Below are positions 4,533 through 56,821 of a stretch of DNA of 64,000 nt, piece by piece (the stretch's first letter is position 1; each line of letters begins with the position of its first letter). The notes beneath the pieces are model-generated. The model did no database searches. It had not been told where the DNA came from and worked only from the letters and a program-made list of their open reading frames with translations. The DNA is from an uncultured Alphaproteobacteria bacterium. GTDB taxonomy: Bacteria > Pseudomonadota > Alphaproteobacteria > Caulobacterales > Hyphomonadaceae. Both the position numbers and the translations under genes were made by a program. The stretch is from NCBI GenBank assembly GCA_963784415.1, contig CAWARK010000001.1:10335-74334 (forward strand), read 5' to 3'.

Positions 4533-5060
4533 TTATTGGACGTTGACGGTGATCTTGTCGGACATGATCGCCGCGGGCTTGTGCAGCTCGTGGTTCATGT
4601 CGCCGAAGACGAGTTGCAGCGTGTGCGGCCCGGGCGGGAGTTGCAGCACGACTTCCGTCTGGCCGCCGCCGAAATGCATGTGCTTGTCATCCTTCGGGAT
4701 GGCGAACTGCTTTTCTTCATCGCTGAGCGTCGTGTCGATCAGGAGGTGGTGGTGGCCCGTGTTGGGCGTGTTGGTGAGCGCGGGCGCGACGCCGATGCCA
4801 TAGGCGCCGAAGACGACGCGGAAGCTCTGCGGTACGGTCATGCCATCGTGCAGGTTGACGAAGTAGACGGCGGGGCCGGGCGTCGCGTGCAACGCCACGG
4901 CGTTCGCCTCCATGTCGCTGATCGTCTGTTCGAGGCTGACGATCCGGTCGGCGGCTTTCGATTCAGCTTCGGTCGCGACGGTCTCGGCGGGCTTGCTTTC
5001 GGTACAGGCGGCGAAGGCGAGCGCAAGGACGGGTGCGGCGAGGAAGACGGCGAGGCGCAT
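4533..5060 (-). CDS. DUF4399-like exported lipoprotein
   Basis: Signal plus lipobox MRLAVFLAAPVLALAFAAC. GHHHLLID and HFGGGQTE motifs are as in DUF4399 proteins. Confidence 0.7.
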   Translation of the reverse strand: MRLAVFLAAPVLALAFAACTESKPAETVATEAESKAADRIVSLEQTISDMEANAVALHATPGPAVYFVNLHDGMTVPQSFRVVFGAYGIGVAPALTNTPNTGHHHLLIDTTLSDEEKQFAIPKDDKHMHFGGGQTEVVLQLPPGPHTLQLVFGDMNHELHKPAAIMSDKITVNVQ

Positions 5061-5217
5061 GGCTGGGTTCCCTTGTTTCATGCGAGGAATAGCACGCCTG
5101 CGCATTCGGGCGAGGGCCTATCGGCTGGGCTTGCCCTGCATCGCGATGGAGCATCCGTGACGTCGCATTGGAGCAGGGGGCTTCGTGTCAGTTCGGCGTC
5201 ATGTTAGCGATGCCGCC

Positions 5218-6198
5218 ATGCGGAGCGTGTGGCTTATTCTCCTGGCCGGGCTGATCTGTGCGGCGCCGGCGCTTGCGCAGACAGCTTATGTAACGCCCCG
5301 TACATCCTTTGGCGCGCCGGACCTGGAAGGCGTGTGGTCGAGCCAGACGGCGACACCGCTGGAGCGTCCGCCGGTGTTCGATGGTCCGACGACGACGGCG
5401 GAAAAGGCGGCGGCTTTCGCCATCGCCAGCCCCGAAGCCTTCACGTCCGACACGAGCGATGGCGTTGGCGCGCGCCAGTCCGAGTGGTGGGAGTTCGGCG
5501 CGCACATGACGTCGTTCAAGGGCGAGATACGCACGTCGCTGATCGTCGATCCGGCGGACGGCAAGATGCCCTACAGCGACGCCGGGCGGGCGAAGCTGCG
5601 CCAGTTGCAGGCGGATGTGTTCGCCAATTTCGACGGCCCCGAAGCGCGGCCCGCGACCGAGCGCTGTCTGGCGGGCGGATCGGGCGCGACGGGCGCGCCG
5701 CTGTTCGTGCCGCGCTACAATGCGAACTATCAGATCGTGCAGACGCCGGACTATCTCGTGCTGTCGATGGAGGCGGGCCGCGAGGCGCGCATCATCCGCA
5801 TCAACGCGCCGCGCCTGCCGCCCGCCATGCATCGCTGGATGGGCGATTCCATCGCGCGTTGGGATGGCGATACGCTGGTGGTGGAGACGATCGGCTTTGT
5901 TCCAGGCGACGCGTTCAAGCCCTCGGCGCCGATTCTCGTGTCCGCGAATGCGCGCGTGACGGAACGCTTTACGCGCATCGCGCCGGGCGAAATCCTGTAC
6001 CGCTACACCGTCGATGATCCCGAGACGTTCAGCCGGCCATGGACGGCGGAAATGATTCTGCACGCGACCAGCGCGCGGATGTTCGAATACGCGTGCCACG
6101 AAGCCAACTATTCGCTGGAAGGCATGCTGGCGGGCGGACGCGCCCACGCGGCATCCCACCCTAGGGGGCCAGAGCAGGCGCTGGACCCCACAGATTGA
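5218..6198 (+). CDS. Secreted protein of unknown function, recurrent family, paralogue 1
   Basis: Sec signal MRSVWLILLAGLICAAPALAQ. It shares the blocks PDLEGVW, ERC, YNANYQIVQTPDY, ARIIRIN, WMGDSIARWDGDTLVVET, VTERFTR, LYRYTVDDPETFSRPW and YACHEANYSL with the genes at 21143, 53789 and 61895. Confidence 0.8.
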   Translation: MRSVWLILLAGLICAAPALAQTAYVTPRTSFGAPDLEGVWSSQTATPLERPPVFDGPTTTAEKAAAFAIASPEAFTSDTSDGVGARQSEWWEFGAHMTSFKGEIRTSLIVDPADGKMPYSDAGRAKLRQLQADVFANFDGPEARPATERCLAGGSGATGAPLFVPRYNANYQIVQTPDYLVLSMEAGREARIIRINAPRLPPAMHRWMGDSIARWDGDTLVVETIGFVPGDAFKPSAPILVSANARVTERFTRIAPGEILYRYTVDDPETFSRPWTAEMILHATSARMFEYACHEANYSLEGMLAGGRAHAASHPRGPEQALDPTD

Positions 6199-6313: not shown

Positions 6314-7408
6314 ATGGCAGATGTGGAGATGAAGATGGCGGGCGCCGCTCTCAAGCTGGTGGAATCTAAGGGCATGGACAAGCAGAAGGCGCTGGAAACA
6401 GCCCTTGGCCAGATCGAGCGCAACTTCGGCAAGGGCTCGATCATGCGCCTTGGCGAACAGCGCGCGATGGATATCGAGGCGCTGTCGACCGGGTCGCTGA
6501 GCCTGGACGTGGCGCTTGGCATTGGCGGCCTGCCGCGTGGCCGGATCATCGAAATCTACGGGCCGGAAAGCTCGGGCAAGACGACGCTGGCGCTGCACGT
6601 TATCGCCGAAGCGCAGAAAAGCGGCGGTGTCGGCGCGTTCATCGACGCGGAACACGCCCTTGATCCGGTCTATGCCGGCAAGCTGGGTGTGGACCTCGAC
6701 GACCTTCTGGTCTCGCAGCCGGACACGGGCGAACAGGCGCTGGAAATCGCCGATACGCTGGTTCGTTCCGGCGCGGTCGATGTGCTGGTCATCGACTCGG
6801 TCGCGGCCCTCACGCCGCGCGCCGAACTCGAAGGCGAAATGGGCGACAGCCTGCCGGGTCTTCAGGCCCGACTGATGAGCCAGGCCCTGCGCAAGCTCAC
6901 CGGGTCGATCTCGAAATCCAAGACCATGGTGATCTTCATCAACCAGATCCGGATGAAGATCGGCGTCATGTACGGCTCGCCCGAAACCACCACGGGCGGC
7001 AATGCGCTGAAATTCTACGCGTCCGTGCGCCTCGACATTCGCCGCATCGGCTCGCTCAAGGACCGCGATGAAGTGATCGGCAACCAGACCCGCGTGAAAG
7101 TGGTGAAGAACAAGGTTGCTCCGCCGTTCCGCGAAGTCGAATTCGACATCATCTACGGCGAAGGCATCTCCAAGACCGGCGAGCTGATCGATCTCGGCGT
7201 GAAGGGCAACATCGTCGAGAAATCGGGTTCCTGGTTCTCCTACGGCTCGCAGCGCCTCGGACAGGGTCGCGAGAATGCGCGGAAATTCCTCAAGGAAAAT
7301 CCGGCCATTGCGACCGAGATCGAGGACGCCATTCGCAAGAACTCCGGTGTCATCAACGAGAACCTGCTCGTGCCTGAAGAGCCCGACGCGGACGGCGAAG
7401 AAGAATAG
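6314..7408 (+). CDS. recA: Recombinase RecA
   Basis: Walker [10 protein letters not shown] and full-length RecA similarity ([14 protein letters not shown]..., [37 protein letters not shown]). The start could instead be the ATG at 6335. Confidence 0.97.
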
Positions 7409-7723
7409 GACCAGCGCGGTCGGCCTTGCCCCGCCTCGCAGACTGAATTGGCAGGCCAGCCAAGAAGGCGTCGGTGTTCCCACCGGCGCCTTCCCCTCGT
7501 CTGGCGTCTGGCCCTCATTCAACCGTGGCCCTCATCCGGCCGGTTTCCGGGCGTTTTCCCGGGTCCGTCCGCATTGCTTGACGCAGGGCTGGGCTTTATA
7601 CCGCCCCATGGTCGTGCGCCGGGCTGGGATGGCTGGCGGGGCGACCCCAATTGACCGGTTATGGAGAGCGTTGCCGCCTCAAAAGGAGGCGGGGCGGTAT
7701 CCATAGCCCTGAGGAGCCGCCTG

Positions 7724-10408
7724 ATGACGTCGAACAGCTCGCCCAACAAGTCCGGAACGCCTGCGAGCGTGAACGCCATTCGCGCTGCCTTCCTGAATTA
7801 TTTCGACAAGACCGGTCACACGGTGAAGCCATCATCGTCGCTGGTTCCGCACGGCGACAACACCCTGCTGTTCGTCAACGCCGGCATGGTGCAGTTCAAG
7901 AACATCTTCACGGGCGCGGAGAAGCCGTTCGCGCCGCGCGCGGCGACCTCGCAGAAATGCGTGCGCGCGGGCGGCAAGCACAACGACCTCGACAATGTCG
8001 GCTACACCGCGCGCCACCACACCTTCTTCGAGATGCTCGGCAATTTCTCGTTCGGCGACTATTTCAAGGAGCAGGCGATCGAGCATGCCTGGACGCTGCT
8101 GACGCGCGACTATGGCCTGCCGAAGGAAAAGCTGATGGTCACCGTCTATCACGACGATGACGAGGCGGCCGGCTACTGGAAGAAGATCGCAGGCCTGCCG
8201 GAGTCGAAGATTGTCCGCATCGCGACCAACGACAATTTCTGGATGATGGGCGACACGGGGCCGTGCGGCCCGTGCTCGGAAATCTTCTATGATCATGGCG
8301 ACAAGATCTGGGGCGGCCCGCCGGGCTCGGCCGACCAGGATGGCGACCGGTTCATCGAGATCTGGAACCTCGTCTTCATGCAGTACGAGCAGTTCAATGA
8401 TGGCCGCGAGCGTGTCCCGCTGCCCAAGCCGTCGATCGACACGGGCATGGGCCTCGAGCGTCTCTCGGCGATCCTGCAGGGCGTGCACTCGAACTACGAG
8501 ATCGACCTGTTCGCGAACCTGATCGCGGCTGAGGAAGAACTCTACAGCGTGAAGGCCGCGGGCGATCAGCTCGCCTCGTTCCGCGTCATTGCGGACCACC
8601 TGCGCGCGTCGTCTTTCCTGATCGCCGATGGCGTCTCGCCGTCGAACGAGGGCAGGGGTTATGTGCTCCGCCGCATCATGCGCCGCGCCATGCGCCACGC
8701 GCACATCCTCGGCACGCGCGAGCCGAACATGTTCAACCTCGTCGGCGCGCTGGCGAAGGAGATGGACGAAGCCTATCCGGAACTGAACCGCGCGAAGGAC
8801 GCGATCGAGTCGGCTTTCAGCCAGGAAGAGCAAAGCTTCCAGCGCACGCTGGGCCGTGGCCTGGCGTTGCTCGACGAAGAGACCGCCTCGCTCGGCAAGG
8901 GCGGCGTGCTGAAGGGCGATGTCGCCTTCAAGCTCTACGACACCTACGGCTTCCCGCTCGATCTCACGCAGGACGTGCTGCGCTCGCGCGACATGACGGT
9001 CGATGAGGTGGGCTACAAGGCCGCGATGGAAGAGCAGCGCGAGCAGAGCCGGGAAAATTCGAAGTTCGCGGCGGGTGATGCTTCGGGCGAGGTGTGGTTC
9101 GCGGTGCGCGACGCTTCGGGCGCGACCAGCTTCCAGGGCTATGACGCGGAAGAAACCTCCGGCCGCCTCGTCAATGTCCTTGTCGGCGGCGCGCAGGTGA
9201 AGGCGCTCAAGGCGGGCGACAAGGCCGAACTCGTGTTCGACCAGACGCCACTCTATGCCGAAAGCGGCGGGCAGGCGGGCGACAAGGGCGAGATCTTCTT
9301 CCCCGGCGGCGGCCGCTTCCGTGTCGACGACGTGCAGAAACGTGCGGGCGATGTGTTCGCCCATGTCGGCGAGATGGCAGCGGGTTCGGCCAAGGTCGGC
9401 GATGTCGCCGAGCTGAAGGTCGATCGTGTGCGCCGCGCGAAGATCCGCGCCAACCATTCGGCGACGCACCTGTTGCATGCGGCGCTGCGCAACAAGCTCG
9501 GTAAGCACGTGACGCAGAAGGGTTCGCTGGTCGAGGCGGACTATTTCCGGTTCGACTTCTCGCACACAGCGCCGACGACGCGCGACGAGCTGGAGACGGT
9601 CGAAGCCGAAGTGAACGCGGTGGTGCGCCAGAATGCTCCGGCGGAAATCCGCGTGATGGCGCCGGACAAGGCGATCGAGGCGGGCGCGATGGCGCTGTTC
9701 GGCGAGAAATACGGCGATGAAGTGCGTGTGCTGCGCCTCGGCAATTCGGTGAGCGAGGCCAATGCGCCTTACTCGGTCGAGCTCTGTGGCGGCACGCACG
9801 TCGCGCGCACCGGCGACATTGCGGTGTTCGTCATCACCTCTGAAGGCGGCGTCGCGCAGGGCGTGCGCCGGATCGAAGGCGTAACGGGCGAGGCGGCGCT
9901 CAACTTCCTCAAGGCGCGCGGCAACATCGCGCGCGAGATCGCGGATCAGTTCAAGGCGCCGATCGCCGATGCGCCTGCGCGTGTCGCAGCGCTGGCCGAG
10001 CAACGCAAGAAGCTCGAGATGGAATTGGCGGACGCCCGCAAGAAACTTGCGATGGGCGGTGGTGGCGCAGCGTCCGGGCCGGAAGAGGTCAACGGCATAA
10101 AGTTCATCGGCAAGATCGTCGATGTGCCTGCGAAGGATCTGAAGTCGCTGGCAGATGAAGCCAAGACGTCGCTCGGCTCCGGCGTGGTCGTGTTCGTCGC
10201 TACGGCGGAGGGCAAGGCCACCGTGGTTGTTGGCGTCACCAACGACCTGACCAAGCGCTTCCCCGCCGGCGATCTCGTCACCAAGGCTGTGCAGGCGGTC
10301 GGCGGCGCGAAGGGCGGCGGGCGGCCCGACATGGCGCAAGGCGGCGGGCCTGACGGCGACAAGGCGAACGACGCCATTGCCGCCGTGAAGGCGATGCTCG
10401 CGGGCTGA
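7724..10408 (+). CDS. alaS: Alanine--tRNA ligase
   Basis: An 894-aa AlaRS with [34 protein letters not shown] and the editing-domain [14 protein letters not shown] 7724 is preceded by GAGGAG at 7711-7716. Confidence 0.97.
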
Positions 10409-10411
10409 CCC

Positions 10412-12120
10412 CTACGCTGCGCGGACTTCGCGCAGGAAGCGGTCGACCTGCGCCTGCAGAACTTCACCATTCTTGGCGAGTTCGGAAGCGGCGGTCAGCA
10501 CCTGGCCAGAGCCATGCGAGGCTTCTTCTGAGGCGCGTGTGACGCTGGTGATGCTCGACGCCACGTCCGTTGCGCCATCCGAGGCCGACTGCACGTTGCG
10601 TGAGATTTCCTGCGTCGCCGCGCCCTGCTGTTCCACCGCCGAGGCGATTGCGGACGAAATCTCGCTCATCTTGTCGATCGACGCGCGGATGCCGGTGATG
10701 GCGGAGACGGAAGAGTTGGTCGCTTCCTGCATGGCGCGGATCTGGTTGGCGATCTCCTCGGTCGCTTTCGCTGTCTGGCTGGCCAGGGTTTTCACCTCGG
10801 TCGCGACGACAGCGAAGCCACGGCCGGATTCGCCTGCGCGCGCCGCCTCGATGGTGGCGTTGAGCGCAAGCAGGTTGGTCTGGTTGGCGATGTCGTTGAT
10901 CAGCGTGACAACTGCGCCGATGCTGGTGGCGTTCTCGGCCAGCGTCTGAACTTGTTTCGACGTTGAATCCGCCTGCTGCACGGCGTCGGCCACCATGCGC
11001 GAGGATTGCGTCGTCTGGCCCGAGATTTCGCGAATGGAGGCAGACAGCTCCTCGGTTGCGGAGGCGACGCCGTGGACGTTGCGCGTCACTTCTTCTGCCG
11101 CAGAAGCCACGATGATCGAGCGTGAGGAGGCTTCCTGCGCCGTGTGTGACAGGGCTTCGGCTGTCGCCTGCATCTCGACCGCGGCAGCGAAACGGAGGCG
11201 ACCACCTGGCCGACCGTGCTTTCGAACTGGTCCGCCATGGCGCGCATGGCCTGGCGGCGTTCCTCAGCCGCGCGAGCGCGTGCGGCTTCCTGTTCGAGGC
11301 GCGCCTTTTCCTGCTCGCCGCGAAGACGATCAGCCTCGATCATGTTGTCCTTGAACACCTGCACGGCGCCCGCCATCGCGCCCAGCTCGGTCTTCTGACC
11401 GGCGAACGGGATGCGGACGGTCTTGTCGCCGCCAGCCAGCGTCGACATGGCGCTCACGATGCGCGCCACCGGACGCACGACACCGAGCAGGGCGTAGGCG
11501 GTCAACAGCAGCGACAGCAGGACCAGCACGCCGACCGTCCCGAAGACGATCATGGATGTCTCGGCAAAGGTCGCGTCGTTGGCGTCGTTCACACTGGAGG
11601 ATATGTCCTTGTTGATGACGATCAGCTTGTCGAGTTTTGTGGCGAGGGAGTCGAACAGGGTCCGCATATCGTCGACATAAAGCAATCCGGCAGCGACATT
11701 CTCATTGCGGATGGACAGGTCTTCGAAGTGTTTGTTGAACGCGAGATACTGCTGATACTGTTGTCCGATCGAGTCGAACAACGCCTGCTCCTCTTGCGCG
11801 TCGGGCTTGATGGTCTTGGCGTATTTCACTGTCCAGTCGTTGTAGTCGCCGATGGCCTCCTCGATCTCCTTGCCGATGGCGGCGATCGCAGACGGTTCGG
11901 TCAACGTCATATGTTCGCTTTCGCCGATGCGAATGTTGCCCAGCGCGGAGTTCATCTCTTCGGCGGCTTCAACGCCGGGGATCACGTCATCATAGAGCGC
12001 GTTGGCGCCATCGTTGAGCGTTGTCGCACTGGTGATCGCGACATAGCCGACCCCCACAGACAGACCCAGCGTCGCCAGCGAGATGGCGAGAAGTCCGGTC
12101 CGAATCGAAAGCGATGGCAA
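10412..12120 (-). pseudogene. Methyl-accepting chemotaxis protein; frame broken as sequenced (-1 near 11187)
   Basis: ORF 11086..12120 carries the TM, periplasmic helical sensor, second TM and HAMP region. ORF 10412..11173 carries the signalling domain ([35 protein letters not shown]). The junction reads ...[13 protein letters not shown] / [12 protein letters not shown]. 1709 nt is 3n+2. Confidence 0.85.
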
Positions 12121-12264
12121 AGGCGCACTCCGTCAGTAAAGCGCGCCAGCCAGAGGCATCGGTATCGCGCGTTTCCCCGCGGAAGAAATGAGCGGAAAGA
12201 GTTAAATGAGGGCTAAGCACATTTAACTCCTGTGGCGCGGCGGGTGCGACGCATCAACGCAAAC

Positions 12265-12291
12265 GGGCGGAGCGCTGTTCGCGCTCCGCCC
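12265..12291 (-). terminator. Hairpin terminator downstream of icd
   Basis: GGGCGGAGCGC-tgttc-GCGCTCCGCCC, followed on the minus strand by GTTTGCGTT. Confidence 0.5.
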
Positions 12292-12323
12292 GCTGAATTG
12301 CATGCAAATACAGGCGATCGCGC

Positions 12324-13542
12324 CTACGCCGACATCGCTTCCTGGAAGTTCGAGGCGACTTTCTCGATGAAGCCTTCGGTCGTCAGCCAGGGCTGATCCG
12401 GTCCGATGAGGAGCGAGAGGTCTTTCGTCATGAAGCCGGCTTCGACCGTATCGATCGACGGTCTTCTCGAGCTGGGTCGAGAACTTCGCGAGTTCGGCGT
12501 TGCCATCCAGCTTGGCGCGGTGGGCGAGGCCACGGGTCCAGGCGAAGATCGAGGCGACCGAGTTGGTCGAGGTCGACTTGCCCTGCTGGTGAGCGCGGTA
12601 GTGGCGCGTCACGGTGCCGTGGGCGGCTTCGGCTTCGACCGTCTTGCCATCCGGCGTCATCAGCACCGAGGTCATCAGGCCGAGCGAGCCATAGCCTTGC
12701 GCGACGGTGTCGGACTGCACGTCGCCGTCATAGTTCTTGCACGCCCAGACATAGCCGCCCGACCATTTCAGGCAGGCCGCGACCATGTCGTCGATCAGGC
12801 GGTGTTCGTAGATGCCGTTGAACTCGGCGAACTTGTCCTTGAACTCGGTGTCGAACACTTCCTGGAAGATGTCCTTGAAGCGGCCGTCATAGGCCTTGAG
12901 GATCGTGTTCTTGGTCGAGAGGTAGACCGGCCATTTGCGCTGGTAGCCGAAGTTGAACGAGGCGCGCGCGAAATCGCGGATCGACTTGTCGAGGTTGTAC
13001 ATGCCCATCGCGATGCCGGCGCCGGGGAAGTCGAACACTTCGTATTCGACCGGGTCGCCGCCGCCCGCAGGCGTGTAGACCATTTTCAGCTTGCCGGGGC
13101 CGGGCACCTTGAAGTCGGTCGCCTTGTACTGGTCGCCGAACGCGTGACGGCCGACGACGACCGGCTGGGTCCAGCCCGGCACAAGGCGCGGCACGTTCTT
13201 CATCACGATCGGCTCGCGGAAGACGACGCCGTCGAGGATGTTGCGGATCGTGCCGTTGGGCGACTTCCACATCTTCTTCAGCTTGAACTCTTCAACGCGC
13301 TGTTCGTCCGGCGTGATGGTCGCGCACTTGACGGCGACGCCGTATTTCTTGGTGGCTTCGGCGGCGTCGATGGTGACCTGGTCGTTGGTCGCGTCGCGGT
13401 GCTCGATGCCGAGGTCGAAGTATTTCAGGTCGATATCGAGATAGGGGAGGATCAGGCGTTCCTTGATGAGCGCCCAGATGATCCGGGTCATCTCGTCGCC
13501 GTCCATTTCAACGACGGGATTTGCTACCTTGATGACGGCCAT
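12324..13542 (-). pseudogene. icd: NADP-dependent isocitrate dehydrogenase (eukaryote-like, about 405 aa); frame broken as sequenced
   Basis: ORF 12223..13542 matches IDH up to ...[14 protein letters not shown] and then turns Arg-rich. ORF 12324..12533 supplies the conserved C-terminus [33 protein letters not shown]. 1219 nt is 3n+1. The shift lies within ACCGTCGATCGATACGG (minus strand, about 12449-12461). Confidence 0.9.
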
Positions 13543-13688
13543 GAAAAGCTCCTGAAAGGCGATTTCCCGGGGCTATACCAGACAGGTTCCGATGCACAAT
13601 GGCCGACCACGTATGCCGCGCCTGCGTCGCGGGTTCCGCCCGGCCGAGTGGCATTCCGTACCGGCCAAATCCGGCCTAGAAAGCGCGC

Positions 13689-14429
13689 ATGATCGCCCCA
13701 TGCTTCATCCTCGTCGTCCCGCAATTGGGCGAGAATATTGGCGCCGCCGCACGCGTGATGGCCAATTTCGGGCTTACCGACCTGCGCCTCGTCGCGCCGC
13801 GCGATGGCTGGCCGAACCCTGCCGCCGAAACGATGAGCGCGGGCGCGCTGCCGGACGTTGTGTCGGTCAGCGTGTTCGAGCGGGTTGAGGACGCCATTGC
13901 GGATTGCGTCCTGGTTTTCGCCACGACGGCGCGTCCGCGCGAGATGGAGAAGCCGGTCGTCGGCGCGTCGGAAGCAATCACCCGCATCCGGGCAACCTCA
14001 GCGCGCACCGCCATCCTGTTCGGCGGCGAGCGTGCTGGCCTACCCAACGAAGCGGTCGCGCTGGCGGATGCGATCCTGTCCTATCCGGTCAATTCCGCTT
14101 TCGCGTCGCTCAATCTTGCGCAGGCCGTGGCGCTGCTCGCGCACGCCTATGCGGAAGCCAACGCCAGCGGACCGCCAGCGGCATTCACAGACCCGGTCGA
14201 TGCCCCGGCTCCGCGCGAAGAGCTGGTCGGCATGATGGAGCATTTCGAGGAGGAGCTTGATCGCGCCGGGTTCTTTTTCCCGGATGCGAAGCGTGTGCCG
14301 ATCACGCAGAACCTGCGCAACGCTTTCACGCGCGCAGGATGGACGGCGCAGGAAGTCTCAACGTTCCGGGGGGCGATCAAGGCGCTGGCCGTTGGTCGCG
14401 GGAAGGCGCGCGTGAAGCGCGATACCTGA
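13689..14429 (+). CDS. SpoU/TrmH-family RNA 2'-O-methyltransferase (TrmJ-like)
   Basis: ILVVPQLGENIGAAARVMANFG, FGGERAGLPNE and SLNLAQAVALLAH motifs of class IV (SPOUT) methyltransferases. Length 246 aa. Confidence 0.8.
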   Translation: MIAPCFILVVPQLGENIGAAARVMANFGLTDLRLVAPRDGWPNPAAETMSAGALPDVVSVSVFERVEDAIADCVLVFATTARPREMEKPVVGASEAITRIRATSARTAILFGGERAGLPNEAVALADAILSYPVNSAFASLNLAQAVALLAHAYAEANASGPPAAFTDPVDAPAPREELVGMMEHFEEELDRAGFFFPDAKRVPITQNLRNAFTRAGWTAQEVSTFRGAIKALAVGRGKARVKRDT

Positions 14430-17072: not shown

Positions 17073-17087
17073 GGAACTAGTTGTTCC
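17073..17087. promoter_or_regulatory. Second palindrome GGAACTAGTTGTTCC sharing the AACTAG core
   Basis: Read directly from the sequence, 93 nt upstream of ATG 17180. Confidence 0.35.
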
Positions 17088-17179
17088 GGCAAACGGTCAG
17101 GACGCCGGTCCAGAAGAGCCAAGGGCTACAGAAGCACCAGAAGACCCGGACCACCGGGCCGCCAAAAGAGAAAAACGCC

Positions 17180-17575
17180 ATGCCGAAGCCACGTTCTGAC
17201 GTTCTGACCGAAGCCGAACAGCGCATCATGCGGGTGCTGTGGGAGAGGGGGGAGGCGAGTGTGCGTGACGTTACCGACGCGCTCGAGCCGACCTATCCCG
17301 TCGCCTACAACACCGTGCTGACGCTCCTGCGCATCCTGACCGACAAGGACTATGTCCTGCCGCGCCAGGATGGGCGGGCCTTCATCTACAAGCCGACCGT
17401 TACGCGCGCCGAGGCGCGCTCCCGCGCGCTGCGCAAGGTGGTGTCGACCTTCTTCGAAGGATCGCCCAACGCCCTTGCGCAACATCTCATCAGAAGCGAG
17501 ACCCTCAGCACGGATGAACTCCAGGCGCTGAAGGAAGAACTCGACAGCATCTCCCCGGAGGACGGCAATGACTGA
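17180..17575 (+). CDS. BlaI/MecI/CopY-family transcriptional repressor
   Basis: Winged-helix N-terminus LTEAEQRIMRVLWERGEASVRDVTDAL...YNTVLTLLRILTDKDYV. About 130 aa. It overlaps the downstream M56 gene by 8 nt. Confidence 0.85.
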   Translation: MPKPRSDVLTEAEQRIMRVLWERGEASVRDVTDALEPTYPVAYNTVLTLLRILTDKDYVLPRQDGRAFIYKPTVTRAEARSRALRKVVSTFFEGSPNALAQHLIRSETLSTDELQALKEELDSISPEDGND

Positions 17576-19997
17576 CATGTCCCTCTCTCAAACACTGGTT
17601 GTTGGCCATCTCTGGCAGAGCGTCGCCATCGCGGCCGTGCTCGCCGGCGCGCTGATCATCGGCAAACGCATGCGTGGCGGCACGCGCTACGGCCTTGGGG
17701 CTGCGGCCCTGCTGGCCAGCCTCGCCCTGCCGTTTGCGTCCTTCATTCCGGGCGAGACAATCGTCGCGGGCCTGCTCAAGCAGATGAATGCGCCGGTCAG
17801 CCTCGATAGCGCAGCGCCGACGACACATCTCGCCACGCTGCCGATTTCGGAAATTGCGGCGCGCGTAGCTCCCGCTCCGGCCGCCAAACCGATGACGCCG
17901 GTGAATTACAATGAGGCATCGCTCGGTTATGCATCCAGCGCGCTTGCCCCGGCTGCTGCTCAGGCTGCGCCTGTGGGCGCGGTGAAGGCCTCTGCGCCGC
18001 CATCGCTGTTCACCCTGCCGCAGATCCCGATGCCCGACATCGGCTTGCCGCTGCTCATCATCTGGCTCGGCGTCGCCGCTGTCCTGATCGGCCGCACCAT
18101 TCGCGACCTCATCGCTGTCGAGCGTCTGGTCGCCCGCGCCAAGCCGGCTGACCTGCCGAAGGCGCTGCAGGCCCGCATGCAGGGCGTCCGCGTTGTCGTC
18201 AGCCCGGAAGCGCCCGGACCGATGGCTGCCGGCCTGCTGCATCCCGCGATCGTGCTGCCGGAATCCATCGCGCTGGCTTCGCCCGGCATGGCCGCGCTGC
18301 TCGAGCACGAGCACGCCCACATCCGCCGCCGCGACATGCTTGCCGCGCTCGGCCAGCGCATCGTCCTCGCCCTGCTGTGGTGGAGCCCCGCGCTCTACTG
18401 GATCAGCCGCCGCATGGACGAAGAACGTGAAGTCGCCTGCGACGAAGCCGCTGTCGATCGCACGGGCGATGCCCGCGCCTTCGCCCGCTCGCTCACCACG
18501 CAGGCCGAGAACCAGCTCTGGGTGCGTGCGCCGCGCCTGGCCGTTGGCGCCATTGGTCCGCGCTCGCAGTTCAGCCGCCGCATCCGTCGCCTGATCGACA
18601 TCGCGAAGACCGGTGGATCGCCCGCGAAATACTCGGGCCGTCTCGCCTTCGCTGGTCTCGCCGTTGTTGTCGGTGTCGCCGCGATGGTCACGCCGCGCTT
18701 CACGGCCGATGCCCAGCAGACGCAGGACAAGCCGATCGACCTGACGTCGAAGGACGCGAACGCCAAGGCCGAACTCAACACGGCTGAAGGCAAGCTCGAT
18801 GGCGCCGCCCCGGGTTCGCACGACGACTTCAACTGGGACAGCAAGGATTGGGACGGCAAGGACTTCGCCGGTCTCGGCAAGGAAATCGAAGCGATGATGG
18901 CCGAGCTGGCGCCCCAGCTCAAAGCCCTCGGCGCCGAGTTCGGACCTGAGATGCAGGAAGAGTTCGCCGGACTGTCGACCGAGATGGCGGGCCTTGGCGT
19001 CGACATCTCCTCGATGATCACCCAGGACGTGATGGCGGAAATGCCGCGCATCATGGAAGAGGTCCGCCGCTCGCTCGAAGAAGCCGGGATCGACCCCGAC
19101 CACATGGACGAGATGAAGGGCCTGTCGGCAAAGGACGCCGCGGAAGTCCGCGCCGCCATGCAGCAGGCGCGTGAAGAAATGAAGCACGCGCTCGGACCGG
19201 AACTGCAGGCCGAGATCCGTGCGTCGCTCGCCAAGGCGCGCGACGAGATCGCCAGCCATCGTGACGAGATCGCCGCGGCGATGAACCAAAGCCACGAAGG
19301 CATGGCCATCGCCCGTGAAGCGATCGCCGCCGCCCGCGCGGAAATGGATGCCGCCCGCGCTCGCGGTGACTTCAAGGTCATGGGCAAGGACGGCAAGATC
19401 AGCTTCGACTTCGGACCGGAAGTGATGGAACAGCTGCGCGCAGCTGGCCTGAACCTCGATCTCAAGGGCACGAAGATCAACTTCAACGGCCACCGCGATC
19501 GCAGCCTGATCGAAGCCGCCGACCAATGCGATGTTTCTGCGATCAACAAGCTGCTGGCTGACGGCAAGAACGATGCAAACATGCTGATCCCCGGCATGGG
19601 CACGGCCCTGATGGCCGCGACCGACTCCGAGTGCCTCGACGCCGCCCGCGTCCTCATCAACGCCGGCGCTGATGTCAATCGCGGTTTCCCGGGCAACGGT
19701 ACGCCGCTGCAGATCGCGGTCGATCACGACAACAAGGCGCTCGTCGATCTGCTGCTGAGCCGTGGCGCCAACCCGAACGCGTCCTCGCCGGGCATGCCGG
19801 GCGCGCTCTTCCAGGCCATCGATCAGAGCAACTTCGACATCGTGAAGGCGCTGGTCGAAAAGGGCGCCAACATCAATCTCAAGTCGCCGATGTCCGGCAT
19901 GCGCACGCCGCTCGACGCGGCCATCGACGAAGGCCAGGACGAGATTGTCGACTACCTGCGCGCCAAGGGCGCCAGGGAATCGGACAAACATCACTAG
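17568..19997 (+). CDS. BlaR1-like M56 peptidase/sensor with a long helical region and C-terminal ankyrin repeats
   Basis: N-terminal TMs and the HEXXH motif in LLEHEHAHIRRRD. There is a further TM and then a Glu/Ala-rich helical stretch. The C-terminus has ankyrin-like repeats (GTALMAATDSECLDAARVLINAGADVN; NGTPLQIAVDHDNKALVDLLLSRGANPN; RTPLDAAIDEGQDEIVDYLRAKGA). Confidence 0.85.
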   Translation: MTDMSLSQTLVVGHLWQSVAIAAVLAGALIIGKRMRGGTRYGLGAAALLASLALPFASFIPGETIVAGLLKQMNAPVSLDSAAPTTHLATLPISEIAARVAPAPAAKPMTPVNYNEASLGYASSALAPAAAQAAPVGAVKASAPPSLFTLPQIPMPDIGLPLLIIWLGVAAVLIGRTIRDLIAVERLVARAKPADLPKALQARMQGVRVVVSPEAPGPMAAGLLHPAIVLPESIALASPGMAALLEHEHAHIRRRDMLAALGQRIVLALLWWSPALYWISRRMDEEREVACDEAAVDRTGDARAFARSLTTQAENQLWVRAPRLAVGAIGPRSQFSRRIRRLIDIAKTGGSPAKYSGRLAFAGLAVVVGVAAMVTPRFTADAQQTQDKPIDLTSKDANAKAELNTAEGKLDGAAPGSHDDFNWDSKDWDGKDFAGLGKEIEAMMAELAPQLKALGAEFGPEMQEEFAGLSTEMAGLGVDISSMITQDVMAEMPRIMEEVRRSLEEAGIDPDHMDEMKGLSAKDAAEVRAAMQQAREEMKHALGPELQAEIRASLAKARDEIASHRDEIAAAMNQSHEGMAIAREAIAAARAEMDAARARGDFKVMGKDGKISFDFGPEVMEQLRAAGLNLDLKGTKINFNGHRDRSLIEAADQCDVSAINKLLADGKNDANMLIPGMGTALMAATDSECLDAARVLINAGADVNRGFPGNGTPLQIAVDHDNKALVDLLLSRGANPNASSPGMPGALFQAIDQSNFDIVKALVEKGANINLKSPMSGMRTPLDAAIDEGQDEIVDYLRAKGARESDKHH

Positions 19998-21142: not shown

Positions 21143-22242
21143 CTAGTTCTTCTTGGGCTTGCCCTTGGCAGGCTTGGTTGCCTTGGCGGCGGCTTCGCGG
21201 GCCGCTTCAGCTTCGATCTCACGCTCGCCGGAGAGAATGCCGGGCAGGGCGTGGTTGCCTTCATGGCAGGCGTATTCGAACAGCGGTGCGCCCAGCGGGT
21301 GGAATTCGTACTCGCCGCCCCACGGCTTCTCCCACATCGTCGGATCTTCGACGGAGAAGCTGTAGTACAGGCGGTCTGCCGCGGTACGCTTGAAGCGCTC
21401 GGTGACTTTCAGGTTTTCCCACGAGCCAGCGAACTGCTGCGAGCGCGGGATGTTGGTGGTTTCGACGACCAGCGTGTCGCCGTCCCACCAGCCGATCGAA
21501 TCGCCGAAGTACGGACGAAGGCCATCCGCACGGTGCTTGGCGTTCAGTTTCACGATGCGCGCGTCGTGGTTCATCTCGACGGTGATCGCCACGAAGTCCG
21601 GCGTCTGCACGATCTGATAATTGTTGTTGTAAAAGCCGTTCGCCAGCATCGGCGGTCCGCCATTGCGGCCGAACGAGACGATGCAACGCTCGCCAGCCGA
21701 GCGACGCTCATAGCTGTCGAACGCGCCGGAGCCCGGCGGCATCTGCGGGGCGGGGGCGACGGCAGCGCCCGGCTTGCGCGGCGGGAACTGGCCGTTCGGG
21801 GTGGTGAGAACCGAGGTGCGGCCTTCGCCGTCACGCGCATGACGTTGTTGCCCGGGTCGAGCCAGCCGCGGTTGTAGCCGCCGACGCCGCCGCCGGCCGC
21901 CTTGAATTCAGGGCGCTCGATGGTGGTCTTGGCGACAAAGGTGGCCGATGCGTTCGGGTCGGTCGGGGCGTCGCCCTCGGCGATCTCGATCTGCACGTCG
22001 TCTTCCAGCTTTTTCACTTCGGCTTCGGAATAGGCCAGCTTCTCGCCCAGCGCGGGCGGGCGGGTCAGCGGCGTGAGGGAGGCGTTGCTCCATACGCTCT
22101 GCATGTCAGGCTGGCCGAAGGACGTGCGCGGGGCCTTGTATTCTGCGGCGCCGGCAGCGGCCGGTGCGGGGGTCGTCTGGGCCTGGGCGAGGCCGCTGGT
22201 CGCAAGAGCGGTCCCGACGGCGAGGAAAAGAGCAAGTCTCAA
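21143..22242 (-). pseudogene. Secreted protein, recurrent family, paralogue 2; frame broken as sequenced (-1 near 21830)
   Basis: ORF 21571..22242 gives the signal MRLALFLAVGTALATSGLAQA and PDMQSVW. ORF 21143..21742 gives ERC, YNNNYQIVQTPDF, ARIVKLN, FGDSIGWWDGDTLVVET, VTERFKR, FSVEDPTMWEKPW and YACHEGNHAL. The junction is NNVMRV / DGEGRTSVLTTPNGQFP. 1100 nt is 3n+2. Confidence 0.8.
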
Positions 22243-22557: not shown

Positions 22558-23176
22558 ATGTCCAGGCGTCAGAACGCTAAGTACAAACTCGACCGCCGCG
22601 TTGGTGAAAACGTCTGGGGTCGTCCCAAGTCCCCGATCAACAAGCGCCAGTCCCGCCCCGGCCAGCACGGCGCCCGCCGCGCCAACAAGCCGTCGGATTT
22701 CGGCATCCAGCTGATGGCCAAGCAGAAGCTCAAGGGCTTCTACGGCGACATCACGGAAAAACAGTTCCGCAAGACCTATGAAGAGGCCTCGCGCCGCGTC
22801 GGCAACACCGCCGAGCTGCTGGTCGGCCTCCTCGAGTCGCGCCTCGACACGGTTGTGTACCGCTCGAAGTTCGTGCCCGACGATCTTCGCGGCCCGCCAG
22901 TTCGTGAACCACGGCCACGTCACGCTGAACGGCAAGAAAGCCAACATCGCCTCGATGATGGTGAAGCCGGGCGACATCGTCCAGGTCCGCGAGCGTTCGC
23001 GCAACATGGCGCTGGTGATCGAAGCCATGGGCTCGGCCGAGCGTGAAGTTCCGGAATACATCGAAGTCGACCAGAAAGCCGGCACGGCGAAATTCGTCCG
23101 CATGCCCGCCCTGTCGGACATCCCGTACGCCGCGCGTATGGAACCGAACCTCGTGGTCGAATTCTACTCGTCGTAA
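22558..23176 (+). pseudogene. rpsD: 30S ribosomal protein S4; frame broken as sequenced (extra C in the CCC run 22876-22878), almost certainly a sequence error
   Basis: ORF 22558..23046 matches S4 up to ...[15 protein letters not shown] 22778..23176 continues [34 protein letters not shown]...NLVVEFYSS. 619 nt is 3n+1. Confidence 0.93.
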
Positions 23177-30157: not shown

Positions 30158-31485
30158 CTACCGCACCACGCTCGCCCACAGGTCGACCTGTTCGCCGGCG
30201 TGGACTTTCGCTTTCACGATGTCGCCGGGCTTCACGTCCGTGTCCTCGAGGAACACCGAGCCATCGATCTCTGGCGCATCCGCTTTCGAGCGGCCGACTG
30301 CGCCGTCTTCATCAACCTCGTCGATGATGACGTCGATCGTCTTGCCGATCTGCGCCTGCGCGCGTGCGTCGGCGATTTCGGTCTGGACCGCCATGAAGCG
30401 ATGCCAGCGTTCTTCCTTCACTTCTTCCGGAACGTGGTTCGGCAGGTCGGCCGAAACCGCGCCTTTGACGTTCTCGTACTTGAAGCAACCGGCCCGCTCG
30501 ATCTTGGCTTCCTTCAGCCAGCCGAGCAGGTGCTCGAAATCCGCCTCCGTCTCGCCCGGGAAGCCCACGATGAAGGACGAGCGCAGCACGAGGTCCGGCA
30601 CTTCCTTGCGCCATTTGGCGATGCGGTCGGCGGTCTTGTCGATGTTGGCGGGGCGCTTCATCGCCTTCAGCACGCTGGGCGATGGAATGCTGGAACGGGA
30701 TGTCGAGATAGGGAAGGATGCGGCCGTCGGCCATCATCGGCATCACGTCGTCGACGTGCGGGTAGGGGTAAACGTAGTGGAGGCGCGTCCACACGCCGAG
30801 CTCGCCGAGGCCTTCGCACAGGTCCTTGAAGCGCGTCTGGCGTTCCTTGTCGCGCCACTTGTACGGCGCGTATTTCACGTCGAGGCCGTAGGCCGACGTG
30901 TCCTGGCGAGATGACGAGCAGTTCCTTCACGCCCGCCTTCACCAGCTGTTCGGCTTCGCGCAGCACGGCGTCGATCCGGCGCGAAACCAGATCGCCGCGC
31001 ATGCTCGGGATGATGCAGAACGAGCAGCGATTGTTGCAGCCCTCGGAAATCTTCAGGTAGGCGTAGTGGCGCGGCGTGAGGCGATAGCCGCTCTCGGGCA
31101 CCAGCGACACGAAGGGATGGTCCGGCGCCGGCAGGTGCGTATGCACCGCGCTCATCACCTGTTCGTACTGGTGCGGCCCCGTCACGGCGAGAACGCCCGG
31201 GTGACGGTCGGTGATGACGTTGGCTTCGGCGCCGAGGCAGCCGGTGACGATGACCTTGCCATTCTCGTTGATCGCCTCGCCAATTGCGTCGAGGCTTTCC
31301 GCCCGCGCCGAGTCGAGGAACCCGCACGTGTTGACCAGCACAAGGTCCGCGCCCTTGTAGTCGGCCGCGATCGCATAGCCTTCGGCCCGCAGGCGCGTGA
31401 TAATGCGTTCTGAGTCCACCAGCGCCTTGGGGCAGCCAAGCGAAACGATGCCGACTTTGGGCTGGGTTAACGTGGTCTCGCTCAT
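30158..31485 (-). pseudogene. rimO: Ribosomal protein S12 methylthiotransferase RimO; two frame breaks as sequenced (about 30905 and about 30683)
   Basis: There are three consecutive ORF pieces. ORF 30667..31485 has the MTTase N-domain ([13 protein letters not shown]) and radical-SAM [11 protein letters not shown] 30312..30878 has [11 protein letters not shown]...[34 protein letters not shown] 30158..30673 has LKAMKRPAN... and the TRAM domain. 1328 nt is 3n+2, which fits two +1 insertions. Confidence 0.9.
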
Positions 31486-39373: not shown

Positions 39374-41317
39374 CTACCGCTTGGGCTTGAGCGCGATCAT
39401 GACGTTGCCCGGCGCCTGGCCGAACATGCCGTAGCCTGAGTTCAGGATCAGCATGCCGTGCGTTGCGATGATCGACGCCGCATCGATCGAGCCGCCATTG
39501 CCAGCAACGCCGTTGACGCCCTGATAGGTCTGCGCCGTGTCGTACTTCCACTTCAGCGCGCCGGTCTTGCGGTCGAGCACGTAGAGCATGCCATCAAGGC
39601 CGCCCGTGACGACATACTCTCCGATCACGCTCGGCGCGGCAGAGAGGCCATACATCCGCTGGCAGCCCGGCATCCGCGTCTTCCGGTCGCCCGAGCAATC
39701 CGCCGCCGTATTGAACGACCACGCGATCGACCCGTCATTCAGGTTCAGCGCATAGAGCCCCGGCTTGATGACCTTGTCGTCATAGGCCGGATCCGTCGGC
39801 ACCGGACGTCCGACATTCGAGATCGGCGCGTAGACATGCGTCTCGTCCGCAGCGATCCCCCAGTGAACGCCGCCCATCGCCGTGCCGTGACCCAGCGCGG
39901 TGCGCCACACCACAGCGCCCGTCTCCGGATCCATCGCCCACATCGAGCCGGACTTCTGGCCTGCGAGTACAAGCTCTTTGCCGTTCGGCGCCTTGGTGAA
40001 GATCGTCGACGCGCCGAAATCCACGTCGCGATAGACGGTCGGACCCGAGCAATTCTTGTTGGTCTCGCGGCCCGGATAGCAGCCCGCATTGTAGACGTCG
40101 TTCTCTGTCGCCTGATGGCTCCAGACGATCTTGCCGCTGTCGAGGTCGAAGGCGAGCAGGGCGTCGGTGTTCGGGTGGGCAGGGCCGGAGTTGGCCTCGC
40201 CCGTGCCGACGAACAGGCGGTTGCGTTTGAGGTCCAGCGAGGGCGAATTCCAGATCGGTCCGCCCGAAGGCCCCCACAGCATCTGTCCGTCACCGCGATC
40301 CTTGATCGGCTGGGCCTCCGGCATGACGCCTTGCGCCCAGATCTTCTCGCCGGTCTTCGCGTTGATCGCCGTCACGCCGCCGCGCGCCTTGCAGCACACA
40401 TAAGCATCGGCCATCGCGCTCGCGAGTTCATACTGCGAGACAGGCGCATACACGCGGTCCTTGTAGAGAACCGGCGTCGACGTCACCATCTGGTTCTTGA
40501 AGAACGAGACGTTGGTGACCCACAGCTTCTTGCCCGTCTTCGCGTCGAGCGCGTGCACGAAGCCGCCCATGTCGCCGACCATGATGATCTTCTGGCCGTT
40601 CGACAGCTCGCCGTAACCCGCCGACGTGCGCAGCGCGCGACCGCCATCATAGCTCCACTGCACGCACGGCTTGTCGCCCGAGATGTCGAGCGCGAAGACG
40701 CGGTTGTTGTCCGCTACCGGCAGGAACATCGTGTCGCCGACGATCGCCGCCTGTCCGCGCATCGTGCCGACCTGCGGGAACGCCATCGTCCAGGCGACTT
40801 CCATGTTGTCGAGATCGCCGGGCTTCAGGCCGGTCTGCTTGTCCGACAGCTGGCGCTTGTTCGAATAGTCATAGCCAAATCCGGAGATCGTTGCCTTGAC
40901 GTCCAGCTTAGGTGTGCGGCGATTGCCCGTGCAGGCATTCGGCGCGATCCAGCCCGTCGCGTCCGCTTCGCCGCCGGAAATGTAATCCGACACGTTGGAG
41001 ACTTCGACCGCCGATAGGCCTGCGCCCTGCGCGACCATCTTGCCCATGATCAGCGCGTTGGTGACGTAGAGCGCCGAGACGCGCTTCAGCGCATCGCGGG
41101 ACGGCGCCTTGGTGGCTTCAGGGTTGTCGTGACAAGCCGCGCAATGCTGCTTGTAGATTTCCTCGCCCGCCGCTTTCGACGCAGCGGTCGCATCGCCACT
41201 GTGCGCCGCCGTCACCAGCGGATCGTTGGCCGCCATCTGCGTATCGGTTGGCGTGCTGCATGAACTCACGGCGAGTATCGCCGCGAGCGCGACACCGGAT
41301 GCGATTGTTCTCAACAT
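39374..41317 (-). CDS. PQQ-dependent quinohaemoprotein dehydrogenase, PVA-dehydrogenase-like (N-terminal cytochrome c), lipoprotein, copy 1
   Basis: Lipobox AVSSC and haem motif CAACHDNPEATKAPSR with downstream GKM. Repeated xxDxxTGKxxW propeller motifs are present (ALDAKTGKKLW, AINAKTGEKIW, AFDLDSGKIVW, AMDPETGAVVW, VLDRKTGALKW). There is a vicinal Cys-Cys (YVCCKARGG). Confidence 0.85.
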   Translation of the reverse strand: MLRTIASGVALAAILAVSSCSTPTDTQMAANDPLVTAAHSGDATAASKAAGEEIYKQHCAACHDNPEATKAPSRDALKRVSALYVTNALIMGKMVAQGAGLSAVEVSNVSDYISGGEADATGWIAPNACTGNRRTPKLDVKATISGFGYDYSNKRQLSDKQTGLKPGDLDNMEVAWTMAFPQVGTMRGQAAIVGDTMFLPVADNNRVFALDISGDKPCVQWSYDGGRALRTSAGYGELSNGQKIIMVGDMGGFVHALDAKTGKKLWVTNVSFFKNQMVTSTPVLYKDRVYAPVSQYELASAMADAYVCCKARGGVTAINAKTGEKIWAQGVMPEAQPIKDRGDGQMLWGPSGGPIWNSPSLDLKRNRLFVGTGEANSGPAHPNTDALLAFDLDSGKIVWSHQATENDVYNAGCYPGRETNKNCSGPTVYRDVDFGASTIFTKAPNGKELVLAGQKSGSMWAMDPETGAVVWRTALGHGTAMGGVHWGIAADETHVYAPISNVGRPVPTDPAYDDKVIKPGLYALNLNDGSIAWSFNTAADCSGDRKTRMPGCQRMYGLSAAPSVIGEYVVTGGLDGMLYVLDRKTGALKWKYDTAQTYQGVNGVAGNGGSIDAASIIATHGMLILNSGYGMFGQAPGNVMIALKPKR

Positions 41318-43285: not shown

Positions 43286-43457
43286 GGCGAACCCTCCCGC
43301 TATCCCGCCCGCGACTTCTCGCGCAGGTCGGGTGCTGGGCGGGACCATCCTCCCAAGATGACGTGTGCGTCAATTGGGGCGGTAAGGAGAATTACGCCCG
43401 CCCGCAACCGGGGCGCTTTGCCTTGAAGTAAAGGCGTCTGGCCTGTAGGGGGCGGCC

Positions 43458-46344: not shown

Positions 46345-46518
46345 GCACGTCCTCCCGTAAGCGCGCGGGTTTTTCCCCGCTGCACTGCTTGGCGCGCAAC
46401 CTGCCCCAGAGGGAAGGCGTTGCAAAGGGCAGGCGGGAGCGGATCGCATCGTTGTGTTTGACCCCCGCGCCAGAGGCGTCACAATGCCGCTGGCCAGCTT
46501 GGCAGCAAGAGAGACTCC

Positions 46519-51007: not shown

Positions 51008-51104
51008 CACACCCTCGCATCAATTCCCTGCGCTCAGGCTGCGCCGCGCGGTGCGCTATTGCAAGCCGGGTGACAGACGCCGCTGCCCGCCCTAGGCAAG
51101 CATC

Positions 51105-55630: not shown

Positions 55631-55653
55631 CAGTCAGGCCCGACACACCATCA

Positions 55654-55689
55654 AGCCCGCCGGCCCCAAGCCGGCGGGCTTTTTGTTTG
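55654..55689 (+). terminator. Rho-independent terminator
   Basis: AGCCCGCCGG-ccccaag-CCGGCGGGCT followed by TTTTGTTTG. Confidence 0.75.
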
Positions 55690-55712
55690 CGCGTTTGAGC
55701 GCCCACACCGCC

Positions 55713-55954: not shown

Positions 55955-56125
55955 AACCGCGCTATGGGCGACAAGAGTTACACCCCATTTTGTTGGATGA
56001 GATCCGCACTTATCCAGCAGCCCGCGTTTCCGCGTCTCCAGCAATCTCAATGACTTGCGCGAAAAATAGGGTGGATTGGCGTTCGGCAAATCGGCCGGGC
56101 TCCGGGCGCACGTATAGTGGCGGCC

Positions 56126-56620: not shown

Positions 56621-56759
56621 GCAGCGCCCGCAGGGCGCGTCCGTCGAAGGACGAGCGCGGCCACGCGCACGCACGTGGGCCTCCGCTGCATCCAAATTTC
56701 GGAAAACCAAACCCCAACCCACCTCGCACGCCCCGCGCGCGAGGCCGCACCCGCATGCA

Positions 56760-56796: not shown

Positions 56797-56821
56797 CATC
56801 TTGTCCGCGATTTCCGTCAGA

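Follow-up and report, generated by a model that had tools for sequence, protein, structure and literature searches.

Blc, an exported bacterial lipocalin of the outer membrane, is a lipoprotein, and several enzymes, including lipocalin-type prostaglandin D synthase, allene oxide cyclase and violaxanthin de-epoxidase, are also built on calycin-like barrels. The copper-import pairs CopC/CopD and YcnI/YcnJ each place a small periplasmic protein with an N-terminal histidine beside a polytopic membrane protein. The YceI-family lipocalin BcnA, together with the cytochrome b561 LcoA, protects Gram-negative envelopes from lipid peroxyl radicals (PMC9113575). The DNA analysed here, called the window, is a stretch of 64,000 nucleotides from an uncultured member of the Hyphomonadaceae (assembly GCA_963784415.1, contig CAWARK010000001.1, positions 10,335 to 74,334), and it carries four paralogous genes, copies 1 to 4 (Table 1). 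On sequence grounds the four are members of one very large, widespread and unnamed family of exported proteins of about 320 aa. The reading that best joins the evidence, held tentatively and with a little less than even confidence, is that these proteins are ligand-holding calycin-like barrels, and that members of two subtypes, A and B, form a pair in a membrane-linked, probably redox-connected module.

The four genes had been picked out in an earlier reading of the letters alone (the sequence-only reading) as paralogues with a shared order of motif blocks, and ORFs (open reading frames), BLASTP and tblastn bear this out. Pairwise BLASTP on the frame-corrected proteins, with the database size set to 1e6, gives E values of 6e-52 for copies 1 and 2, 9e-46 for copies 1 and 3, and 4e-42 for copies 2 and 3; overall, values among these three copies span 1e-35 to 1e-54. 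Copy 4 is more distant, with about 25% identity to the others and E values of 1e-9 to 1e-13, so that all pairs are significant and the weakest stands at 1e-9. The alignments span the positions at which the reading frames of copies 2 and 3 are broken (see below), and tblastn of the window finds exactly four paralogues and no fifth. Every block that had been listed is found in a MAFFT alignment, which holds PDxxGVW, ERC/KC, YNxNYQIVQTP, WxGDSxxxWxGDTLVVET, VxERxxR, DPxxxxxPW and CHExN/CVEF. Orthologues of copy 1 (50-97% identity, about 315 aa) are syntenic with the DUF4399 and recA genes, and those of copy 4 are 73-90% identical. Among the homologues listed, the closest relatives bearing an organism name are Hyphomonadaceae metagenome-assembled genomes.

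Export signals were assessed by eye and with a simple heuristic, which asked for 10 or more hydrophobic residues in a row ahead of the first conserved motif. The family alignment used for this and for residue conservation has 247 members: the four copies of the window, ORFs found in other genomes (23 A-type and 84 B-type), and 136 representatives. The hydrophobic run is present in 223 of the 247. Copies 1-3 have AxA-type Sec cleavage sites as judged from the pattern, and copy 4 has LGAC, one of 26 members in which the signal peptide ends in a lipobox-like match to [LVI][ASTVI][GAS]C.

The family has no counterpart in the domain databases. Scans with the profile hidden Markov models of Pfam-A 2025 and NCBIfam 20.0 gave no match at E<=1 for any of the four copies, and 38 diverse members searched against Pfam at E<=10 did not agree on any family. 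The matches of single members were to ACC_epsilon, WsaF_N and MCAfunc, which are mutually unrelated, with a best E of 0.027. PDB sequences yielded no match by phmmer or by profile search, and all 360 homologues listed lack precomputed Pfam domains. The sources name these homologues "hypothetical protein", the sole exception being a 42-residue fragment whose cluster is unrelatedly named. The profile searches thus place the genes in no well-characterised family, and the view that no named family can be assigned to them stands.

When 1.84 billion representatives at 50% identity were searched exhaustively with a profile, the count of family proteins was 21,019 at an E cut-off of 1e-3, and it fell to 9,516 with a cut-off of 1e-10 and to 1,567 with one of 1e-30. 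At least 594 of 599 pattern matches in contigs from one genome per species encode relatives. No tblastn match was found in 72,556 plasmid records. For context work 80 loci were retrieved, and most locus counts below are over 79. They come from Alphaproteobacteria (Hyphomonadaceae, Phenylobacterium), Gammaproteobacteria (Pseudohongiella, Halieaceae, Porticoccaceae, SAR86, Steroidobacter), Acidobacteriota (Bryobacterales, Vicinamibacterales) and Gemmatimonadota (Longimicrobiales, Gemmatimonadales). Two or more family members lie within 17 kb in 31 of the 79 loci. With about 21,000 representatives and this frequency of multiple copies, the suggestion that the window copies belong to an expanded family of exported proteins is upheld.

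The family divides into two deep subtypes, A (like copy 4) and B (like copies 1, 2 and 3). Residues are numbered as in copy 1, from the Met at 5218. Six positions are invariant in all 247 members (P118, C150, R191, G209, E249 and C293), and G38 (99%), G115, E185, Y261, D267, E295 (98%) and R308 are conserved in at least 95%. G38 forms a GxW motif with W40 (90%) on a predicted strand at 38-41, and the basic residues R250 (89%) and R308 (95%) are candidates for the C-terminal residue that packs on the first-strand Trp in calycins. Other positions separate the subtypes. H294 is conserved in 89% overall and replaced by Val in 22 of 24 copy-4-type members, and N297 (87% overall) is Val or Ala in the copy-4 type. 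A-type members also lack the beta-hairpin that bears R105 and S107; the B-type keeps R105, S107, H294 and N297.

The two conserved Cys are about 143 residues apart. Exactly two Cys follow the GxW motif in 233 of 247 members, and 11 members have four. Since the pair is invariant, the number of Cys is even and the protein is exported, C150 and C293 probably form one structural disulfide in the periplasm. The sequence-only reading had taken the Cys...Cys-His-Glu residues to be catalytic or metal-binding rather than structural. Conservation mapping does not support this as a family-wide feature, since both Cys are kept in all members but the His is not, and the count of two Cys fits a disulfide. 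E295, joined in the B-type by H294 and N297, may still be part of a binding site. The family alignment has neither CxxC nor CxxCH motifs, and the lone Cys-His dipeptide (xACHE) of the B-type is Cys-Val in the A-type. Attachment of haem c through this dipeptide was rejected, as CxxCH is absent and the A-type lacks the His.

An AlphaFold2 model of copy 1, built from a 38-sequence alignment, has a mean pLDDT (predicted local distance difference test) of 81.9 and a pTM (predicted template-modelling score) of 0.79. In this model the signal helix is followed by the strand with GVW (38-41), by three helices (61-77, 87-92, 121-138) interspersed with a small hairpin (103-111), then by eight consecutive strands (170-283) and a C-terminal helix (299-313). 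For copy 4 an independent AlphaFold2 model, poorer in overall confidence (pLDDT 63.7), has the same order of secondary structure. The top 50 Foldseek matches of the copy 1 model in the PDB are all barrels of the FABP/CRABP type, with E from 1.4e-3, a target-normalised TM (template-modelling) score of about 0.5 and about 125 aligned columns. For copy 4 the better-scoring matches, all weak, include CRABP2 (4.5e-3), odorant-binding lipocalins, FABP1, streptavidin and nitrophorin; owing to the low model confidence they serve as corroboration only. Structure prediction followed by Foldseek, which had been put forward as a check, retrieves calycin barrels with both models, through matches that are weak. 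With moderate confidence, the models suggest that the core is a calycin-like (FABP/lipocalin) barrel, a resemblance at the level of fold and not of family membership.

Genomic context was examined by clustering all ORFs from the 80 loci. In 23 of 79 loci an A-type and a B-type gene lie side by side, and the A-type gene is mostly the one immediately upstream. A DUF6152 gene follows in 17 of these 23 loci, against 2 of the 56 that lack an A-type gene (Fisher p 1.8e-10). The gaps between the A, B and DUF6152 genes, -4 to +20 nt, point to one operon. Genes for two DUF6644 membrane proteins are added in at least 11 loci, a gene for a cytochrome c'-like protein with a C-terminal CxxCH in 11 of 79, one for a HupE_UreJ_2 membrane protein in seven, and one for a secreted protein of about 190 aa that matches nothing in six. 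DUF6644 and cytochrome genes accompany family genes in 15 loci, which are spread over Alpha- and Gammaproteobacteria, Acidobacteriota and Gemmatimonadota.

Only some of the module genes are present in the window, namely copy 4, DUF6152, the DUF6644 and DUF6644-like genes and the cytochrome c'-like gene. The same layout is found on a clean Hyphomonadaceae chromosome (L083), which in addition has a 338-aa B-type gene and a 182-aa ORF between DUF6152 and DUF6644 (11803..13817). In the window the 1.2 kb between DUF6152 and DUF6644 (55631..56821) contains no B-type gene, and a 167-aa ORF there (56117..56620) matches nothing. From this comparison, the B-type partner of the module seems to have been deleted from the window. 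The DUF6644 gene of the window is interrupted by a tandem duplication whose halves, 57071-57370 and 57403-57702, are 98% identical over 300 nt; the 332-bp length is not a multiple of 3. The two resulting ORFs share a long identical peptide, and the orthologue in L083 is a single gene of 276 aa. The duplication is either an assembly artefact or very recent.

The partner proteins have conserved features of their own. In 23 DUF6152 sequences HH, EFD and NPHxW are invariant, and the His pair lies directly after the predicted signal-peptide cleavage (AxA|HHAFAAEFD), where it would suit an N-terminal metal-binding site. DUF6644 and DUF6644-like proteins have an invariant His in the first transmembrane helix. 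Two DUF6644-like proteins were tested against Pfam: one weakly matches DUF2214 and the other SirB and UPF0093, and neither matches CopD. The CxxCH of the cytochrome c'-like protein is invariant in 15 sequences, and one homologue (L033) reaches 25.4 bits (E 3e-5) against Pfam Cytochrom_C_2, below the gathering score of 26.5 bits. PDB sequence searches with DUF6152, the cytochrome-like protein, the small secreted protein and DUF4399 gave no significant match. In 13-21 loci the regions preceding the A-type and cytochrome genes were scanned for Fur, Zur, NikR, Irr and RirA boxes, and the scores did not exceed those of shuffled sequence. Literature searches for DUF6152, DUF6644, DUF4399 and their accessions returned only incidental mentions of DUF4399 and no trace of the A-B-DUF6152-DUF6644-cytochrome module, and a broad search on calycins and the periplasm added nothing.

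Fusion proteins were surveyed among the best 150 representatives, and four were found. P0374 joins a cytochrome c'-like domain to a B-type domain, P0315 has two family domains in tandem, P0343 joins a DUF3089 alpha/beta-hydrolase to a B-type domain, and P0305 joins a domain with CxxCH and terpene-cyclase repeats to a B-type domain. As predicted proteins, they speak for a physical tie between a haem protein and the family, and for the pairing of two family domains. A DUF3089 gene also lies a few kb from the A-type gene both in the window (46748..47779) and in L083 (3668..4996), and this proximity together with the fusion P0343 may indicate a lipid-related link.

In the favoured reading, that of ligand-holding barrels, the proteins would be exported by Sec as chains of about 320 aa and would be periplasmic or tethered to a membrane. 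The predicted barrel would consist of a first strand with GxW, a helical insert roughly 100 residues long that would serve as a lid, the remaining eight strands and a helix at the C-terminus, and the putative disulfide would staple together the loops that precede and follow the barrel. An invariant network of Arg, Glu, Tyr and Asp would hold a small ligand, probably hydrophobic or isoprenoid-like. The A and B proteins, co-translated with DUF6152 in many genomes, would act together beside two DUF6644 proteins and the cytochrome c'-like protein. They may be the periplasmic ligand-handling arm of a membrane-linked and probably redox-connected envelope module, because they are co-translated with DUF6152 and have DUF6644 and cytochrome genes as neighbours. 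The dispersed B-type copies, 1, 2 and 3 in the window, would act alone. A bolder version, possible if doubtful, is that A/B, DUF6152, two DUF6644 proteins and the cytochrome c'-like protein, often with the HupE-like protein and a small secreted beta-protein, make up an undescribed periplasm-to-inner-membrane system that is conserved between Alphaproteobacteria, Acidobacteriota and Gemmatimonadota and in which the FABP-like barrel would present a lipid-, quinone- or metal-bound ligand to membrane machinery linked to haem.

Several observations weigh against this picture of barrel and module. The Cys-bearing loops 139-156 and 292-300 are the lowest-confidence segments of the copy 1 model, and both such loops fall below pLDDT 50 in the models of copies 1 and 4. 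Foldseek of the copy 1 model against the PDB gives no match at E<=1e-3, the fold matches are weak and span only about 40% of the protein, and no calycin Pfam family is matched by the 38 members even at E<=10. Of the loci sampled, no more than roughly one quarter to one third have the module, and the fusions are single cluster representatives that may be gene-calling artefacts. The many invariant charged residues across subtypes with about 25% identity would also suit an enzyme, and this leads to a less likely alternative: a periplasmic enzyme that uses the calycin-like barrel as active-site scaffold, with the invariant Arg, Glu, Tyr, Asp and Glu (and the His and Asn of the B-type) catalytic and the A-type a non-catalytic partner subunit. 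Besides the six invariant positions, about ten more are conserved in at least 93% of members, and the restriction of R105, S107, H294 and N297 to the B-type is a pattern typical of catalytic and pseudo-catalytic pairs. The fusions to the DUF3089 hydrolase and to a haem-motif domain point the same way, and the genetic link to the cytochrome c'-like protein, with one fusion, would fit an oxidoreductase that passes electrons to haem. However, the Pfam, NCBIfam and PDB searches reveal no cofactor-binding motif and no likeness to known enzyme families, the neighbours of the dispersed copies form no consistent pathway, and the best structural matches are carriers rather than enzymes.

It is improbable that, in extension of the sequence-only reading, the Cys...Cys-His-Glu residues make up a catalytic site or one that binds metal or haem, the protein being a metalloprotein that would hand metal to DUF6152 and to CopD-like DUF6644 proteins. 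CHE is kept in the B-type, and the partners resemble metal handlers, given the N-terminal His-His of DUF6152, the weak similarity of DUF6644-like proteins to the DUF2214, UPF0093 and SirB membrane families and the presence of a HupE_UreJ_2 protein; copy 1 also adjoins a DUF4399 protein with an HHH motif. Against this, Val replaces His in nearly all A-type members while both Cys remain invariant, the two-Cys pattern in an oxidising compartment points to a disulfide, CxxC and CxxCH motifs are absent, and no Fur, Zur, NikR, Irr or RirA-like box upstream of the module rises above the shuffled background. Far less probable is that the family is redundant and that copies 2 and 3 are pseudogenes in decay, which would make the apparent expansion partly dead DNA. 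The sequence of the window does show one break in copy 2, where two overlapping ORFs in different frames meet at GTGAC in place of the expected GTGGAC, and two in copy 3, which is split over three frames. Each is a single-base insertion or deletion within otherwise continuous and conserved coding sequence. The copy 3 orthologue P0437, intact with 338 aa and 95% identical, reads through both breaks, and corrected copy 2 aligns without gaps over its break to P0358 (58%) and to an ORF of L073 (54%).

Other genes of the window are broken in the same way. A phase map of GC3 (G+C content at third codon positions) suggests many frame switches across the window, with high GC3 kept on either side of the breaks, and consecutive pieces in different frames match consecutive parts of single Pfam families. 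The affected genes include rpsD, the MiaB/RimO-like enzyme, the chemotaxis protein and the AraC regulator (Table 1). Many single-base insertions and deletions seem to be present in the assembly, as is typical of unpolished long reads. Because rpsD and others are equally split and orthologues are intact across the same positions, the interruptions of copies 2 and 3 are, as judged from sequence, assembly artefacts and not decay, and on this basis each of the four genes is regarded as functional in the organism. Pseudogene status was rejected for both copies, on account of the broken essential genes nearby, the intact orthologue and the relatives that align without gaps.

The neighbours of the dispersed copies differ from one another: DUF4399 and recA for copy 1, TerC and rpsD for copy 2, and TauE and an AraC regulator for copy 3. 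The arrangement DUF4399-copy 1-recA is syntenic in L001 (DUF4399 at 7322..7846) and L002 (5719..6243), and the link of DUF4399 to the family is positional only. Each copy had been described as standing next to different exported or redox genes. This holds in part, in that only copy 4 has a context conserved across phyla, whereas copies 1-3 adjoin unrelated housekeeping genes. A link to lipid catabolism through neighbouring genes for acyl-CoA dehydrogenase, short-chain dehydrogenase/reductase, acyl-CoA ligase, enoyl-CoA hydratase, thiolase and CoA-transferase was considered and not adopted. Each gene type occurs in only 5-12 of the 80 loci, mostly more than 1 kb away, which is about background by an estimate made without a control.

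Two other groups of genes in the window are of note. Three paralogous beta-propeller dehydrogenases of the PQQ (pyrroloquinoline quinone) type lie on the minus strand within 7.5 kb (39374..41317, 41348..43348 and 44344..46788). Two of them have a cytochrome c domain, and L083 has a relative at a similar distance from its A-type gene. At 17081..19997 a BlaI-type repressor gene is followed by one for an 809-aa BlaR1/M56 peptidase-like protein with C-terminal ankyrin repeats, an unusual sensor architecture.

Table 1. Paralogues, module genes and other features of the window discussed in the text.
Feature	Coordinates	Strand	Remarks
DUF4399 gene	4533..5105	-	Pfam PF14347; secreted, HHH motif; divergent neighbour of copy 1
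Copy 1 (B-type)	5218..6198	+	Intact; 326 aa from ATG 5218; ORF opens at GTG 5185
Methyl-accepting chemotaxis protein	10526..11970		Frame-broken; Pfam
Copy 2 (B-type)	21143..22242	-	366 aa once one 1-nt deletion near 21830 is corrected
Ribosomal protein S4 (rpsD)	22558..23176		Frame-broken; N-terminal domain 22558..22914, S4 domain 22778..23176; Pfam
MiaB/RimO-like radical-SAM enzyme	30161..31467		In three frames; Pfam
FtsX permease	51096..53655		Probably frame-broken
Copy 4 (A-type)	53789..54739	+	Intact ORF; 316 aa; lipobox LGAC; CVE in place of B-type CHE
DUF6152 gene	55079..55630	+	Pfam PF19649, E 1e-22
DUF6644 gene	56822..57972	-	Pfam PF20349; split in two ORFs by 332-bp tandem duplication
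DUF6644-like membrane protein gene	57976..58833	-	Pfam PF20349, E 2.7e-6; orthologue g310 in L083
Cytochrome c'-like gene	58900..59460	-	C-terminal CxxCH (ACHGCH), from sequence
Copy 3 (divergent B-type)	61895..62913	-	338 aa once two 1-nt insertions near 62865 and 62558 are removed
AraC regulator	63073..63997		Frame-broken; Pfam

A family of about 21,000 representatives at 50% identity that is covered by neither Pfam, NCBIfam nor the PDB, and that the literature searches did not turn up, leaves a considerable gap in how bacterial envelopes are annotated. It is abundant in environmentally dominant oligotrophs, among them SAR86, Pseudohongiella, Halieaceae, Hyphomonadaceae and soil Acidobacteriota and Gemmatimonadota. 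The A-B-DUF6152-DUF6644-cytochrome module joins four uncharacterised families into one testable unit, and the defined genes, partners and residues are a starting point for work on the periplasmic handling of lipid-like or redox-active molecules. If the FABP-like fold is correct, a fold class seen mainly as eukaryotic and cytosolic would extend to a major exported family of bacteria. If the module reading is correct as well, this would be a new bacterial FABP-like superfamily, and among the largest bacterial envelope families that lack a name, a structure or a function.

Compared with the described systems, the likeness to CopC/CopD-type pairs concerns the operon partners DUF6152 and DUF6644 only and not the family itself. 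It is a tentative lead, beside which stand the weak Pfam matches; no CopC, CopD or YcnI Pfam match and no copper regulator or box was found. Some family members, such as copy 4, would be lipoproteins like Blc, judging by a lipobox-like pattern, but Blc has about 170 aa and is matched by the Pfam lipocalin models, whereas the family is not matched and has the pattern in only 26 of 247 members. FABP/CRABP proteins give the best structural matches of both models, and the only ones that are consistent. The barrel predicted for the family would share with them an antiparallel beta-barrel, a GxW-type motif in the first strand and a helical insert after that strand. The family differs in having no detectable sequence or profile similarity to FABP/CRABP proteins and in being about 2.5 times larger (316-366 aa against about 130 aa), and in place of a helix-turn-helix lid it has a region of about 100 residues with three helices and an extra hairpin. 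FABP/CRABP proteins are metazoan and cytosolic; the family is bacterial, is exported via a signal peptide and has the invariant Cys pair. None of the 38 members scanned matches Pfam YceI even at E<=10, and the A/B module differs from BcnA/LcoA in having DUF6644 proteins rather than cytochrome b561 as membrane partners, a soluble cytochrome c'-like protein as haem protein, and two paralogous barrel proteins with DUF6152. As in BcnA/LcoA, a secreted calycin-type protein would be genetically tied to a membrane and a haem protein in many Gram-negative bacteria (PMC9113575). BcnA-LcoA might thus be the closest analogy for the A/B module, in which a lipid-like ligand would be held beside an electron-transfer partner.

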